A DNA stretch of 25,360 nucleotides from a virus (lineage: Duplodnaviria > Heunggongvirae > Uroviricota > Caudoviricetes): the IMG/VR virus record IMGVR_UViG_2529292905_000020; one strand, 5' to 3'. The position numbers and the translations under genes were made by a program. The notes below the pieces were generated by a model, which ran no database searches, was not told the DNA's origin, and worked only from the letters and a program-made list of their open reading frames with translations. Below are positions 7,281 to 23,161 of the stretch, piece after piece (the stretch's first letter is position 1; each line of letters starts with the position of its first letter).

Positions 7281-7815
7281 ACAGGTTTGTGAGGCTCTGG
7301 ATACCTGGGTATGCCGACCAGGAATGACACAGGAGCAGGCGACGATATTAATCACGGAAGCATTCTGGGCTCTGAAAGAACGCCCGAACATCGATGTTCA
7401 ACGCGTCACGTTTAATGATGGCGAGGTTGATCAACGGGCGCTGGGCGTTAACCGGGTGAAGATATTCGAACGCTGGAAAGCTATCGACACCAGAGATAAG
7501 CGTGACAAATTCACGGCGCTGATTCCGGCAATTATGGAGGCTATCCGGATCAGCGATTTCAGATTGTATTGTGAAATTACTGACGGAAAAAGCATTACGT
7601 ACATGATCGCCGGGTTAAACAAAGAATATGGCGATGTGGTGGAGTCCGGGCTGCTTTTTGCGGATCCAGTTGTTGTGGAACGTGAGACTGACGAGCTTAT
7701 AGAAAAAGCTATTGCTTTCAAGCACGCGTATCGTCAGCAATACCAATATTACTTTGCAGATAAACAAATGTCTGCCAGGGGTTCGTATGAGTATCGATGC
7801 ACTACGATGGGCTAA
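7264..7815 (+). CDS. YdaT-like protein (CII-position gene)
   Basis: 183-aa ORF right after the cro-like gene. Segment KFTALIPAIMEAIR resembles the YdaT family of Rac-type prophages; assignment is by recollection. Confidence 0.55.
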   Translation: MKITTEQVCEALDTWVCRPGMTQEQATILITEAFWALKERPNIDVQRVTFNDGEVDQRALGVNRVKIFERWKAIDTRDKRDKFTALIPAIMEAIRISDFRLYCEITDGKSITYMIAGLNKEYGDVVESGLLFADPVVVERETDELIEKAIAFKHAYRQQYQYYFADKQMSARGSYEYRCTTMG

Positions 7816-9314: not shown

Positions 9315-10049
9315 ATGGAGACTGTTTTTGACGCACTGAAAGCGATGGGAAAAGCCACGTCGGTAGAGCTGGCTGCGCGACTTGATATCAGTCGTGAAGA
9401 AGTACTGAACGAGCTGTGGGAACTGAAAAAGGCTGGCTTCGTTGATAAAAGCGTATACACCTGGCGTGTGGCTGATAACAACGTTCAGCAGGAACAGCCA
9501 GCGCCAGAAGAAACCACCACGGCAACAGAAGCGAAAATCTCAGAGTGCGATTTAACCGCGACGATTGAACAACGCGGACCACAAACGGCGGATGAACTGG
9601 CTACGCTGTTCGGTACAACATCCCGCAAAGTTGCTTCAACGCTGGCAATGGCAATCAGCAAAGGTCGTCTGATTCGCGTAAACCAGAACGGTAAAATTCG
9701 TTACTGCATACCAGGTGATAATTTACCAGCAGAGCCGAAAGTTGAATCGGTAGCGGAAACCGATGGTAAAGCCTTTCCTCAGCCAGCCGGTGTTGCGTTA
9801 CCGGTACAGAAAGATGCAACACAGGAAGATATTAAAACAGAAACTGTGGCGGACATTGTGCAGTCGCTGCCATCGTTTACTGCAACGCGAGAAGATGATT
9901 TGATTTTGCCATCGCTGCATATGGCAAATCGCGAACTGCGTAGGGCGAAGAATCATGTCCAGAAGTGGGAGCGAGTCTGCGCCGCGCTGCGGGAGCTGAA
10001 CAAGCACCGGGATATGGTTGCCGGGATTTGTCGGAAGTCCGGGCAATGA
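9315..10049 (+). CDS. Hypothetical protein with two winged-helix-like N-terminal repeats
   Basis: 244-aa ORF with GGGAGG upstream. Two similar segments ([30 protein letters not shown] and [33 protein letters not shown]). Confidence 0.55.
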
Positions 10050-10178
10050 GCGGATGGTGCAGGCCTGAAATCATGATACTAACAATGAAGGTAAAATGCA
10101 TCGGCAGTCTGATTGGTCGTAGTGAGGCGGCGGTCAGGATGAAAGCCCAGGTTAAGGGAATAAGCCTGATTCTGCGGG

Positions 10179-10490
10179 GTGATTTTCACCAGTCAACAAA
10201 ATATCCGTAGCGCGATAACGGTCAAAAATTATGGTGCTGACACTTTTGTGCCACTGGAGATGACTGTACCTAAGTTCAGGGGAGAAGAACACGTCCGGTG
10301 GGATGGTCGGGCCAGATTTAAAGGGCAGGTCATGGCTCCAGCCTGTACGCTGGCAATGGAGGCTGCCTGGCGGGAAATTGATATGGGAACCACGCCACTC
10401 AGGGATTTACTGCCGGTCCAGAGAATAAATTCCTGTTACGGTTACACCACTGTGATCTTGCAAGTGCAGGAAAGTAGGTCTACACGGTAA
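10179..10490 (+). other. Possible gene remnant (fimbrial-subunit-like segment)
   Basis: 103-aa ORF with no signal peptide. Segment RFKGQVMAPACTLAMEAAW weakly resembles the N-terminal strand of mature type 1 fimbrial subunits (FKGEVVNAACAV). Could be a fragment or spurious. Confidence 0.2.
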
Positions 10491-10716
10491 CGCGAGTGCG
10501 TGTAACTTTTGATGTCATTCCCGTAGAAACACCGGACAAATTTTCGCTGACAGGTCATGCAGAAGGTATAAATCTGCAGATTATGGACAATTACGGATAT
10601 CCGGCAAGAGCCGGAAAAAGCATGCCGCCTCTAATTCTCAGTGGAAGATGGACTTGATTATACTCATTGCATTGTCAGAAATAGTTATCCATTAAAGGCT
10701 GGCTATTCCAAACAGG

Positions 10717-10744
10717 ATGTTGATTACAAAAATGTAATCAACAT
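10717..10744. promoter_or_regulatory. 12-bp perfect inverted repeat (candidate operator)
   Basis: ATGTTGATTACA-AAAA-TGTAATCAACAT, about 165 bp upstream of the binding-protein gene, in AT-rich DNA. Confidence 0.4.
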
Positions 10745-10908
10745 GTAAGGTTTATACTCTTCAATATGCGTATAATTTTCCTTATTTTGTTGACTTTAAA
10801 TAACAAGCTATGCACGAGGTAAAGTCGGATAAGTTTATCTGGATGTAATATATATTATTTGTAGTGTTTATAACTTTATTTCATGATAACCAATAAAAGG
10901 AGTTTTTT

Positions 10909-11667
10909 ATGAGGAACATAATGGCAGGTTTTTTAATATTCCTGTCTTCTGCTGCTTATGCTGATATCAATCTGTATGGTCCTGGTGGCCCGCATACAGC
11001 CTTGCTTGATGCAGCCAAACTTTATGCCGAAAAAACAGGTATTATAGTGAACGTTCATTACGGCCCACAGAACAAATGGAATGAAGATGCCAAAAAAAAT
11101 GCAGATATCTTGTTTGGCGCATCAGAACAATCTGCTCTGGCTATCATTCGGGACCATAAAGACAGCTTCAGTGAAAAAGATATTCAGCCTCTTTATCTGC
11201 GAAAAAGTATTTTACTGGTAAAGAAAGGTAATCCTAAAAATATCCGGAGTATTGACGACCTGACCAGACCTGGGATTGGCGTAATTGTTAATGATGGTGG
11301 TGGTACCAGTAATACATCAGGCACTGGCGTCTGGGAAGATATTGCCGGACGTAAAGGGAATATAGAAACTGTCGCCGCAATCCGAAAAAATATTATTTTA
11401 TATGCGCCCAATAGCGGAACTGCACGTAAGGCTCTTGAGAATCAGCCTGGAGCAGATGTCTGGATAACCTGGGCTGACTGGGCAGCCAGTAATCCAGAAA
11501 TTGGTGATGTCGTGGAAATAGCGCCAGACTACGTGATATGGCGTGATATGAACATTACAGTACGTCAGGATGCAAATGATGAAACCCGTCGATTTGCAGA
11601 ATGGCTACAAACCGATGAAGCGGCGCCTGCATTCAAAAAATATGGCTGGACCAGGAAAGGCACTTGA
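10909..11667 (+). CDS. Periplasmic substrate-binding protein, ModA/TupA-like type II fold, with Sec signal peptide
   Basis: 252-aa ORF, AAGGAG upstream. N-terminal signal peptide (MRNIMAGFLIFLSSAAYA then D). Colinear resemblance to E. coli ModA over the whole length (C-terminal FAEWLQTDEAAPAFKKYGW vs FYDYLKGPQAAEIFKRYGF). AT-rich codon usage. No adjacent ABC permease or ATPase gene. Confidence 0.8.
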   Translation: MRNIMAGFLIFLSSAAYADINLYGPGGPHTALLDAAKLYAEKTGIIVNVHYGPQNKWNEDAKKNADILFGASEQSALAIIRDHKDSFSEKDIQPLYLRKSILLVKKGNPKNIRSIDDLTRPGIGVIVNDGGGTSNTSGTGVWEDIAGRKGNIETVAAIRKNIILYAPNSGTARKALENQPGADVWITWADWAASNPEIGDVVEIAPDYVIWRDMNITVRQDANDETRRFAEWLQTDEAAPAFKKYGWTRKGT

Positions 11668-12002
11668 CATCCTCGTCCTTCAGGACGTGGATTCTTTTTC
11701 CGGATGCCGCGCCAGCGGCATGTAGGGGCAGCTCACAAAACGGAAAAAATTGTACGCTAAGCCTCGCCAGGTGAACTGAATTCATTCCGATATGGGAATT
11801 CCCATATCGGGCGAAAACGGTTTGCTGTAACGGCAGAGTTAAGTAGGATTGCTGCGGGTGCTTGAGGCTATCTGCCTCGGGCATGAACACCAACGGCAGA
11901 TAGATAAAAGCCCCACCCGACTATAAATCGAAGTGAGGCCCCTATATGCTCGTCACATATAGATTGCCTCTTACGGACCGAAAGGTCAAGGAGAAGCAGG
12001 CT

Positions 12003-12158
12003 ATGAAGCAGCAAAAGGCGATGTTAATCGCCCTGATCGTCATCTGTTTAACCGTCATAGTGACGGCACTGGTAACGAGGAAAGACCTCTGCGAGGTACG
12101 AATCCGAACCGGCCAGACGGAGGTCGCTGTCTTCACAGCTTACGAACCTGAGGAGTAA
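12003..12158 (+). CDS. hokD: Hok/Gef-family membrane toxin (51 aa)
   Basis: MKQQKAMLIALIVICLTVIVTALVTRKDLCEVRIRTGQTEVAVFTAYEPEE is a Hok-family sequence, matching my recollection of HokD/RelF. Structured leader and 3' fold-back complement present. Confidence 0.85.
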   Translation: MKQQKAMLIALIVICLTVIVTALVTRKDLCEVRIRTGQTEVAVFTAYEPEE

Positions 12159-12228
12159 GAGACCAGGCGGGGGAGAAATCCCTCGCCACCTCTGATGTGT
12201 CAGGCATCCTCAACGCACCCGCACTTAA

Positions 12229-12254
12229 CCCGCTTCGGCGGGTTTTTGTTTTTA
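12229..12254 (+). terminator. Intrinsic terminator after hokD
   Basis: CCCGC-TTCG-GCGGG stem-loop followed by TTTTTGTTTTT. Confidence 0.6.
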
Positions 12255-12386
12255 TTTTCAACGCGTTTGAAGTTCCGGACGGCGCCGGAATAGAATCAAA
12301 AATACTTAAGTAGCGCGCAGGGAGAAGAGGGATGGACCCCGAACTGAACCGCCCCGGTTTTCCTGGAGAGTGTTTTATCTGTGAAC

Positions 12387-13274
12387 TCAGGCTGCCAGAT
12401 CATCGTTTCTGATGGAAGCATAATAAGCTTTTTCTGCTTCTGCCGGAGGGATATGACCCAGCCTTCCCAGCAATCGTCGATTGTTATACCAGTCCACCCA
12501 CGTGAGTGTGGCCAGTTCCACTTCTGCACGGTTTTTCCAGCTCTTACGGTGTATTACCTCCGCTTTGTAAAGACCATTGATGCTCTCCGCCATCGCGTTG
12601 TCATACGAGTCACCTGTACTCCCTGTTGATGCCAGCAGTTTTGCTTCTTTTAGTCGCTCCGTATAGGCCAGTGATACATACTGAGAACCTTTATCACTGT
12701 GATGGACTGTGCCGGACGGCCGACGGGCCCACAACGCCTGCTCCAGTGCATCCAGCACGAATGTCGTTTCCATAGACGATGAGACTCGCCACCCCACGAT
12801 GCATCCGGCAAACACATCAATGATGAACGCCACATAGACGAAGCCCTGCCATGTGCTGACGTAAGTAAAATCAGCCACCCACAGCTGGTCAGGACGTTCT
12901 GCCACGAACTGACGGTTTACGCGGTCGCCTGCGGAAACGGCTTTCCGGCTGACGGTAGTACGGACCTTTTTACCCCGGAGAACACCGGCAAGTCCCATAA
13001 CCGCCATGAGGCGCGCCACTGTACATCTGGCCACCCTGATACCTTCGCGTAACAACTGGCGCCAGACTTTACGCACACCGTACACCTGATGATTTTCATC
13101 GTATACGCGCTGTATCTCTCTCTTCAGCCAGTCATCGCGCTGCGCACGGGCACTGCGTTTATCAGGATGATGTCGCTGTTGCTGACAGTGGTAATACGTT
13201 GACGGGGCAATATGCAGTTCACTGCATACCGGTCCGACCCCGTACTGCTCACGCAGCTTATCCAGCAGTGGCAT
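12387..13274 (-). CDS. IS629 transposase OrfB (DDE catalytic domain)
   Basis: 295-aa ORF with the IS3-family OrfB C-terminus (...LGHIPPAEAEKAYYASIRNDDLAA). Confidence 0.9.
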   Translation of the reverse strand: MPLLDKLREQYGVGPVCSELHIAPSTYYHCQQQRHHPDKRSARAQRDDWLKREIQRVYDENHQVYGVRKVWRQLLREGIRVARCTVARLMAVMGLAGVLRGKKVRTTVSRKAVSAGDRVNRQFVAERPDQLWVADFTYVSTWQGFVYVAFIIDVFAGCIVGWRVSSSMETTFVLDALEQALWARRPSGTVHHSDKGSQYVSLAYTERLKEAKLLASTGSTGDSYDNAMAESINGLYKAEVIHRKSWKNRAEVELATLTWVDWYNNRRLLGRLGHIPPAEAEKAYYASIRNDDLAA

Positions 13275-13600
13275 TATTTTTTCCAGAGGCGGTCGAACTC
13301 CGCCTTCGCAAAATAAGCGGAAGCCTGGCGAAGGATATCGTTACTGCGGCGCAGTTCACGATTTTCACGTTCCAGCTCTTTCAGACGCTGACGTTCAGCG
13401 GTGGTGAATCCACCATCACCACTCCCGGTATCCCGCTCATGCTGACGAACCCACACACGCAGAGTCTCTGGCGTACAGCCAATCTTTGGGGCAATGGAAC
13501 AAATTGCCGCCCATTGTGAGTCATATTCGCCCTGACTTTCCAGAACCATACGAACTGCCCGTTGACGGACCTCGGGGGAAAAACGTGTATTTTTAGTCAT
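13274..13600 (-). CDS. IS629 transposase OrfA (HTH)
   Basis: 108-aa [22 protein letters not shown]... matching remembered IS629 OrfA. Its stop overlaps the OrfB ATG (TAATG) beside an A6 run. Confidence 0.9.
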
Positions 13601-13692
13601 CCTGTTTACCTCTTTCTCAGGGAGTTTAGTCTCCAGGATTCCCGGGGCGGTTCAAACAGGGGGAGTGCTATTTATCTGGAAGGATTCTGTTG

Positions 13693-16601: not shown

Positions 16602-16677
16602 GGCCCTTTAGCTCAGTGGTGAGAGCGAGCGACTCATAATCGCCAGGTCGCTGGTTCAAATCCAGCAAGGGCCACCA
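16602..16677 (+). tRNA. ileZ: tRNA-Ile2 (anticodon CAU, lysidine type)
   Basis: 76-nt cloverleaf. Acceptor GGCCCTT/AAGGGCC, anticodon loop CUCAUAA, T-loop TTCAAAT, encoded CCA. Closely resembles E. coli ileX. Confidence 0.9.
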
Positions 16678-16767: not shown

Positions 16768-16841
16768 GCGTTGTTAGCTCAGCAGGACAGAGCAATTGCC
16801 TTCTAAGCAATCGGTCACTGGTTCGACTCCAGTACAACGCG
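16768..16841 (+). tRNA. argO: tRNA-Arg (anticodon UCU)
   Basis: 74-nt cloverleaf. Acceptor GCGTTGT/ACAACGC, D-stem GCTC/GAGC, anticodon stem ATTGC/GCAAT with loop CTTCTAA, T-arm ACTGG-TTCGACT-CCAGT. 3' CCA not encoded. The argO name is positional (third tRNA of the Stx-phage-type trio). Confidence 0.85.
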
Positions 16842-17013
16842 CTACACTTATTTTCCCGGCTCGCTTTTGCGGGCCTTTTTTGTATCTGCGCCACGCCCGG
16901 CGCATACCAACCACAGAGCCTTTCGGGGGGGAGCTTACGGAGTGGTCAGTGTGACTTTCTCTGTGGGCAGATCGCTCCCGGGCGTTGGCTCACCCACCCA
17001 AAGGAACGTCACG

Positions 17014-22978: not shown

Positions 22979-23089
22979 CTGGCTGTCCGGGCATTTTTGC
23001 GGTTTTTATCTTTATTATTCAGTTTGTTGCGTGGAAAAAATGTTAACAGGCTTTTTCAGCAAATGTTAACCAGGCAGCAGTTAACATTT
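22965..23089. repeat. Cluster of five GTTAAC-containing motifs (candidate terminase-binding / cos-proximal sites)
   Basis: GTTAAC at 22966, 22974, 23042, 23065, 23080. Includes the palindrome GTTAACATGTTAAC (22966-22979) and inverted pair AAATGTTAAC / GTTAACATTT (23061-23070 / 23080-23089). Confidence 0.45.
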
Positions 23090-23161
23090 GCGGCATGAGA
23101 CGCCGGGAAAAATGGGCTGAACCATACCCGGCTGAGTGCGTTATGGACCCGGGAGGAGGCT

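Follow-up and report, generated by a model that had tools for sequence, protein, structure and literature searches.

In Escherichia coli, the paralogous OmpR-family response regulators CusR (copper and silver) and HprR (HOCl and H2O2) both recognize one published sequence, the HprR/CusR box CATTACAAAATTGTAATG. The experimentally shown promoters of this type, those of hiuH-msrPQ and cusCFBA in strain K-12 and of silE, silCFBA, and pcoA on plasmids, drive genes for copper/silver efflux or for the repair of periplasmic oxidative damage. Paa/AdfO, known in the literature since 1999–2003 as a factor in adherence and in lesions of the attaching-and-effacing (A/E) kind, is encoded by a catalogued virulence marker of enterohemorrhagic, enteropathogenic, and enterotoxigenic E. 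coli (EHEC, EPEC, and ETEC), and the gene itself is nothing new. We analyzed a 25,360-nt stretch of DNA (hereafter the window; one strand) from the Caudoviricetes virus in IMG/VR record IMGVR_UViG_2529292905_000020, in which the paa/adfO gene is preceded by a predicted three-half-site box resembling that of the CusR/HprR promoters. On the strength of this resemblance, we consider it fairly likely that paa forms a self-contained cargo cassette with a promoter that depends on CusR/HprR (copper, HOCl/H2O2) for its transcription. Whether HprSR and/or CusSR act directly on paa, a link not reported so far, appears to us an evenly balanced question; it would wire a horizontally acquired adherence factor, carried by a prophage in EHEC and by IncF plasmids of pig and cattle strains, to core-genome sensors for copper and neutrophil-type oxidants. 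The novelty lies in this testable prediction about regulation; the system is not of a new kind.

The DNA ahead of paa has the layout ATTACA-N4-TGTAAT-N5-TGTAAG, 21 bp ahead of a TATAAT hexamer. Written in a common format, the paa promoter region of the window is GATTACAAAAATGTAATCAACATGTAAGGTT-(18 nt)-TATAAT, the K-12 hiuH promoter, which contains the published box, is CATTACAAAATTGTAATGCTGCTGTAAGGTT-(19 nt)-TATCCT, and the K-12 cusC promoter is AATGACAATTTTGTCATTTTTCTGTCAC-(22 nt)-TAAAGT. The hiuH and paa segments agree at 24 of 32 positions: ATTACA, TGTAAT, and TGTAAGGTT are identical, so are all three half-sites with the following GTT, and the differences fall in the flanking base, one base of the N4 spacer (AAAA in paa versus AAAT in hiuH), and N5. 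When compared with CATTACAAAATTGTAATG / ATGACAAnnTTGTCAT, the window box GATTACAAAAATGTAATC matched at 15 of 18 positions and the box of the type B plasmid copies of paa, CATTACAAAAATGTAATC, at 16 of 18, with both half-sites exact in each. The arrangement of half-site 1-N4-half-site 2-N5-half-site 3 is common to hiuH, cusC, silE, and silC (the sil genes being from a Klebsiella plasmid), and pcoA has a TTACA-type box. Counted from half-site 2, the index of the TAnnnT hexamer is 40 in hiuH, cusC, silE, and silC, 39 in the window, and 39–40 among the paa copies. The third half-site and the distance to the −10 hexamer are our own reading of the known promoters and are not part of the published definition. 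By this reading, the paa box shares half-sites, spacings, and −10 distance with the hiuH, cus, sil, and pco promoters, whereas it differs from them in being a prediction and in having an adherence factor as its cargo. The three-half-site pattern occurs once in the window versus an expectation of 0.0005 per shuffled window. The exact 18-mer was present in 54 viral contigs, comprising 44 paa prophages and 10 unrelated sequences, in at least some of which it lies within an open reading frame (ORF).

Alignment of the 5′ regions of seven E. coli copies (the prophage copy and six plasmid copies) yielded ATTACAAAAATGTAATCAA (10723–10741, 19 nt) as the longest invariant run. The other invariant runs were the ribosome-binding site AATAAAAGGA (10892–10901, 10 nt), GTAAGGT (10745–10751, 7 nt), and TATAAT (10771–10776, 6 nt), with 71–81% identity outside them. 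The same three half-sites also stand upstream of an E. coli-type (L150), a metagenomic (L149), and a Providencia alcalifaciens (L011) homologue, with 86, 68, and 67% protein identity, respectively, and apart from the half-site pattern these 5′ regions are unalignable. The consensus across the copies is TTACAA-n-A-n-TGTAAT-N5-TGTAA(G/T), with a TAnnnT hexamer 39–40 nt after TGTAAT. Plasmid pSTEC299_1 (L090) carries the box again, as AATGACAAAAATGTAATCATTATGTAAGGT with an equally spaced TAAAAT, ∼230 nt upstream of a DUF305 (CopM-like) gene. This gene and the YncE-family beta-propeller gene that follows it (1117–2768) lie directly upstream of the plasmid's paa-like gene, and the DUF305 5′ region outside the box is unrelated to that of paa. 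The periplasmic copper-binding resistance protein CopM has the DUF305 domain; with a second box before the DUF305/YncE pair, the element is thus portable and is here tied to copper.

Several observations weigh against control by CusR or HprR. A generic promoter scan returned no sigma-70 match in 10700–10908 because there is no −35 element; the lack of a good −35 before TATAAT would be as expected of a promoter that depends on an OmpR-family activator. In addition, paa is not named in the main text of the O157:H7 HprR study, which describes 41 peaks in chromatin immunoprecipitation sequencing, 371 differentially expressed genes, and a 27-fold enrichment of hiuH (PMC13064566), and K-12 CusR and HprR are both classed as single-target factors. 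Finally, the box is absent from the E. albertii, Salmonella, Yersinia, Citrobacter, and Edwardsiella homologues, which have different 5′ regions; since several Enterobacterales homologues are without it, the proposed control would be lineage-specific.

A different upstream block, TTTTCGTGATAAC or a close variant, was present at L008, L009, L013, L152, and L156; the carriers of this block are Citrobacter, Edwardsiella, an STb-enterotoxin plasmid, and one unassigned Logan metagenomic contig (L156). The E. albertii, Salmonella, and Yersinia homologues have in common a third type of 5′ region. The three types within one family suggest that regulatory regions have been swapped several times.

In the mechanism that we propose, the cassette would carry its own promoter, with the three half-sites at and just upstream of the usual −35 place. 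Phosphorylated HprR and/or CusR would bind this box, which PcoR or SilR could also use where they are present (pig and cattle plasmids), and the bound regulator would recruit RNA polymerase to the −35-less promoter, as at hiuH, cusC, and silE, giving an mRNA with a leader of ∼125 nt. Copper or oxidants from the host would turn the gene on in the gut, and Paa, exported to the periplasm or surface, would act there without a transporter partner and promote adherence. O157:H7 without hprR shows diminished adherence to HeLa cells, pedestal formation, and colonization of the gut, an effect on adherence and colonization that was attributed to ler and hiuH; the adherence defects of hprR and adfO mutants on HeLa cells are alike, in keeping with the model. 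A search of one literature library returned no paper linking Paa with CusR or HprR. If the model is correct, part of the adherence defect of the hprR mutant would be explained by paa, and orphan binding proteins of the Paa type might act in the periplasmic copper/oxidant response and not only as adhesins. In K-12, CusR and HprR are regarded as regulating essentially one or two promoters, and a near-consensus hiuH-type promoter before an adherence gene is noteworthy. Copper is both a pig-feed additive and a weapon of innate immunity, and a prophage or plasmid cargo gene plugged into the host's sensing of copper and HOCl/H2O2 is a testable hypothesis.

An earlier sequence-only reading of this DNA had singled out a 12-bp perfect inverted repeat in 10717–10744 as a strong candidate operator. 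The repeat is indeed perfect and 12 nt long, with its 3′ end 164 nt before the ATG, and the region is very probably regulatory. As judged from the alignments, however, the conserved unit is the three-half-site box and not the perfect palindrome, which is the box plus six extra non-conserved bp on each side, and the match is to the activator site of a response regulator and not to a classical repressor operator. Length alone does not make the repeat unique, since the window contains five perfect 12-nt inverted repeats; further 12-bp ones occur at 142–168 (AAAACTGGTCAT/ATGACCAGTTTT, over the integrase 3′ end) and 23059–23091 (GCAAATGTTAAC/GTTAACATTTGC, ahead of the terminase region). The classical form of the idea, that a dimeric host or phage repressor sits on the repeat and blocks paa transcription, is unlikely in our estimate. 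It would account for the 12+12 symmetry and for a position upstream of the only invariant −10 hexamer, but in the type B and C plasmids, L150, L149, and Providencia the outer 6 bp of both arms have changed with no compensating substitutions, while the inner 5–6 bp are retained together with a third half-site that has no part in the symmetry. The element also lies upstream of the −35 position and does not cover the core promoter, the rest of the window, immunity region included, contains nothing related to it, and the plasmid and Providencia copies come without phage regulators. An operator specific to the phage was rejected in view of the same lack of a similar site elsewhere in the window.

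The repeat could alternatively function as a hairpin in DNA or RNA, acting as a terminator or insulator for upstream transcription or as a recombination hot spot at the left end of the cassette. We regard this as quite improbable. The window copy folds with −14.6 kcal/mol (z = −4.4), and in each of four left-hand contexts the plasmid homology begins no more than ∼15 nt away. A stable hairpin, however, is confined to the prophage and type A plasmid copies and is significant in the prophage copy only; in the type B and C plasmids and in Providencia none is significant (z ∼ −0.5) despite the invariant core. Moreover, no T run follows the stem, the cassette edge lies 10–20 nt to the left of the core and not within it, and the same box precedes the unrelated DUF305/YncE gene pair. 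As the stem is not conserved, the hairpin/terminator reading was rejected.

Slightly less probable still is that TGTAAT-N5-TGTAAG is a Pho box placing paa in the PhoB phosphate-starvation regulon, an assignment that would suit the binding of phosphometabolites by the homologous protein PEB3. A published 12-site Pho matrix scored the Providencia site at 16 bits and the window site at 9.8 bits (rank 12 of 50,686 positions), but with the local AT-rich background the window site fell to 7.5 bits, a score reached by 21% of shuffles, and there was no enrichment in the other homologues. The names paa, adfO, acfC, Z2053, and Z2054 are absent from the text and supplementary tables of the EDL933 low-phosphate/phoB microarray study, the distance from the paa box to the −10 exceeds that of a canonical Pho box by one helical turn, and the HprR/CusR box is a far better match. 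Least credible of all is a functionless block, left over from the terminal codons of an earlier upstream fimbrial gene (...DVDYKNVINM*) or similar to the box by chance: the block shares the reading frame of the fimbrial pseudogene, and the stop codon that closes it is retained in the plasmid copies, but the intact fimbrial homologue ends otherwise (DYYAALRFKLDYE) with homology to the window stopping at 10707, no ORF ends at the block in Providencia, a 15-mer has persisted through divergence great enough to saturate neutral DNA, and the three-half-site pattern has the very low chance expectation given above.

Other candidates were tried and set aside. The resemblance to a Fur or Zur box is poor, and Paa (Z2053) was not Fur-regulated by quantitative reverse transcription PCR in O157. 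An Rfam search for known RNA elements in the 5′ untranslated region (UTR) yielded only sok, outside that region at 11856–12005, and a sub-threshold isrK. To our knowledge, the consensus sequences of FNR, CRP, EvgA, CpxR, OmpR, ArcA, and KdpE differ from the box in spacing or half-sites.

The binding protein encoded behind the box is not an uncharacterized one; the ORF itself, of 252 codons with an AAGGAG-preceded ATG, was confirmed, and it is the already known virulence-associated gene paa/adfO, carried as prophage cargo. On that count the finding is an ordinary rediscovery. The stretch 10100–12300 is 100% identical to many EHEC and Shiga toxin-producing E. coli chromosomes, in which the PGAP product name is 'paa: AcfC family adhesin Paa', and at least 80% of it is present in 573 of 5426 complete E. 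coli genomes. The PPompW phage records are 99.9% identical and use the product name 'porcine attaching-effacing associated protein Paa/adherence factor AdfO'. The annotated loci have the same gene at the same prophage position beside ckf/hokD, and the protein is without any difference. In the identical reference locus L001 the prophage adjoins ompW, and the gene order is integrase ... replication genes, DUF1627, fimbrial pseudogene, paa, hokD, DUF968, rusA, Q; unlike L001, the window prophage has an IS3-family element downstream of hokD. In EDL933 (O157:H7), adfO is Z2053 of island OI-57, with ckf (Z2054) as its constant companion, and an adfO mutant adheres poorly to HeLa cells. The published adfO (Z2053) and Z2054 primers match the window sequence (PMC4763077). 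In a study that named the gene acfC, it was induced in bovine rumen and rectum contents, with no pointer to a regulator.

The features of the locus are collected in Table 1. The sequence-only reading described the gene as part of an AT-rich block and as a phage moron, and both descriptions were borne out. The GC content is 0.358 in 10501–11000 and 0.430 in 11001–11500 versus 0.51–0.58 on either side, and paa is a self-contained ∼1-kb AT-rich cassette in a variable slot between DUF1627 and hokD of an ompW-integrated lambdoid prophage, with phage replication genes on one side and the hok/nin region on the other. In GB089, a related prophage that lacks paa has genes for a DNA-binding protein, a methyltransferase, and other products between DUF1627 and hok. 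Phage morons are independently transcribed cargo genes in lambdoid prophages. Like them, the paa cassette has its own terminator, a deviant base composition, and a site between conserved phage modules. Unlike them, its cargo is composite, includes a dead fimbrial fragment, and is common to IncF plasmids. A promoter of its own is predicted from the invariant TATAAT and the activator-type box, and transcripts are reported in gut contents.

Table 1. Coordinates of the features at the paa locus in the window.
Feature	Position	Strand	Remarks
PapH-like minor fimbrial subunit remnant	10243–10707	+	Frameshifted, internal stops, 3′-truncated; PGAP pseudogene 10215–10748
paa cassette (box, promoter, 5′ UTR, gene, terminator)	10703–11734	+	Common to the window and the IncF plasmid copies
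12-bp perfect inverted repeat, ATGTTGATTACA-AAAA-TGTAATCAACAT	10717–10728 / 10733–10744	.	100% complementary, 4-nt spacer
Predicted CusR/HprR-type 'copper box'	10723–10749	+	ATTACA 10723–10728, TGTAAT 10733–10738, TGTAAG 10744–10749
Predicted −10 hexamer TATAAT	10771–10776	+	Invariant in seven E. coli copies; no −35-like hexamer 16–18 bp upstream
Shine-Dalgarno AAGGAG	10897–10902	+	Ahead of the ATG; overlaps the invariant run AATAAAAGGA at 10892–10901
paa/adfO coding sequence	10909–11667	+	252 amino acids; DNA 100% identical to loci bearing the name 'paa: AcfC family adhesin Paa'
Signal peptide, coding part	10909–10962	+	Read from the sequence
Terminator-like hairpin CGTCC-TTCA-GGACG and T run	11674–11700	+	Longer stem at the same place in the plasmid copies

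IncF plasmids from pig, cattle, and human isolates carry paa-like copies that encode a 93% identical protein with ∼87–91% DNA identity; the homology of these copies to the window starts at 10705–10723 and ends at ∼11734. In the coding region, the synonymous divergence (dS) between the prophage copy and five plasmid copies is 0.31–0.44, and the ratio of nonsynonymous to synonymous divergence (dN/dS) is 0.07–0.13. The fimbrial remnant is 85% identical to an intact 195-amino-acid gene flanked by a major subunit gene and an usher gene. The intact fimbrial protein has the C terminus ...GYPLKAGDYYAALRFKLDYE, which the window tracks to GYPLKAG before diverging. The gene thus reached the prophage along with a scrap of a fimbrial operon and is a moron in phage terms.

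By homology and signal sequence, Paa is a predicted Sec-exported protein with a solute-binding fold and belongs to the PEB3/AcfC/Paa family. The signal peptide MRNIMAGFLIFLSSAAYA|DINLYG, as read from the sequence, combines a charged n-region with a hydrophobic core and with A-x-A at −3/−1, and since the N terminus contains no Cys there is no lipobox. The mature chains in the PEB3 crystals (3fj7_A, 2hxw_A) begin at the residue aligned with Paa residue 19, and we infer cleavage by signal peptidase I after Ala18, as had been read from the sequence before. A phmmer search of the Protein Data Bank (PDB) returned PEB3 (1.2e-81, residues 11–248) and AcfC (3.5e-81), both over the full length, and sulfate-binding proteins as weak matches. 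Pfam family PF13531 (SBP_bac_11) was matched at residues 20–247 with 118.3 bits (cut-off, 25), and the NCBIfam matches, to sulfate, thiosulfate, and molybdate binders, were all sub-threshold. The secreted solute-binding fold is thereby upheld; in view of the SBP_bac_11 match and the weak sulfate, thiosulfate, and molybdate matches, the term 'ModA-fold' can stand if taken broadly to mean a class-II anion-binding protein. In a large protein collection, 278 relatives were found at E ≤ 1e-60, including homologues of 68–87% identity labelled E. albertii, Salmonella, Yersinia, Raoultella, Citrobacter, Enterobacter, and Edwardsiella. Paa falls in PHROG family 11834, which has no function assigned in PHROG.

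PEB3 of Campylobacter jejuni (PDB 2hxw, 3fir, 3fj7, 3fjg, 3fjm) is a full-length homologue of the same class-II binding-protein fold family, and the loop SNTSGTGVWED is kept between the two proteins. Unlike Paa, PEB3 is an N-glycoprotein of an epsilonproteobacterium, and its gene is repressed by the BumR response regulator. The colonization factor AcfC of Vibrio cholerae (PDB 4jb7) is 50% identical to Paa over 242 residues by BLASTP. AcfC is periplasmic, bound sulfated glycans and mucin in enzyme-linked immunosorbent assays, and affects chemotaxis, not adhesion. The ligands of both homologues, phosphometabolites for PEB3 and sulfated glycans for AcfC, are anionic. The acfC gene belongs to the ToxT regulon and has the chemoreceptor gene acfB upstream of it, whereas paa stands alone with its own predicted promoter.

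The earlier observation that no permease or ATPase gene lies near paa was confirmed. No ORF with a Walker A motif plus LSGGQ occurs in the 25-kb window, and no transporter gene is annotated in the 28.6-kb region of an identical prophage. Among 34 homologue loci in different species, an ABC-ATPase-like ORF was present within 4 kb at four, all in Vibrio (554–560 residues, ∼2 kb off), and was absent from the other 30; the gene neighbors of paa homologues vary from lineage to lineage. The description of Paa as an orphan binding protein is therefore correct as to the missing transporter partner, but orphan status is a trait of the PEB3/AcfC/Paa family and is not particular to the prophage copy. As most family loci are without an ABC partner, paa was not deprived of one by the prophage. 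PADLOC gave no match to anti-phage defense families, and the suggestion that such a protein might act in exclusion found no support.

Immediately upstream of the cargo, the DUF1627 gene (9315–10049) is intact in the window and frameshifted in the reference strain E2865, and the N terminus of its product gave weak winged-helix (HTH_20/MarR-like) matches. Downstream, a perfect 24-bp palindrome, CCGATATGGGAATTCCCATATCGG, occupies 11787–11810 within the ∼80-bp junction from the cassette end (∼11734) to the start of the hok/sok homology (∼11814). This palindrome is present in 36 of 38 viral-contig paa loci and absent upstream of hok in a paa-less relative. The adjoining hok/sok-type toxin-antitoxin module spans 11856–12158; the Rfam sok match noted above scored 104 bits, and the mok/hokD ORF (11946–12158), which matches Pfam HOK_GEF, is the 'ckf' (Z2054) of the adfO literature. 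Downstream of the Q antiterminator gene, ARAGORN predicted tRNA-Met (CAT) and tRNA-Arg (TCT) genes at 16602–16677 and 16768–16842, respectively; at the position of the CAT-anticodon gene, a tRNA-Ile is annotated in L001 and a tRNA-Met in the phage record L002. The IS3-family insertion sequence (IS) downstream of hokD (12345–13654, minus strand) has ORFs of 108 and 295 amino acids and terminal repeats TGAACCGCCCCGG(T/G). In the viral contig L131 (IMGVR_UViG_2698536348_000010, ∼7555–7640), a sequence starting with the same IS end, TGAACCGCCCCGGG, follows ...TTCAATATG; in the paa promoter this point separates the box from the TATAAT, and the arrangement would represent a natural uncoupling of the two.

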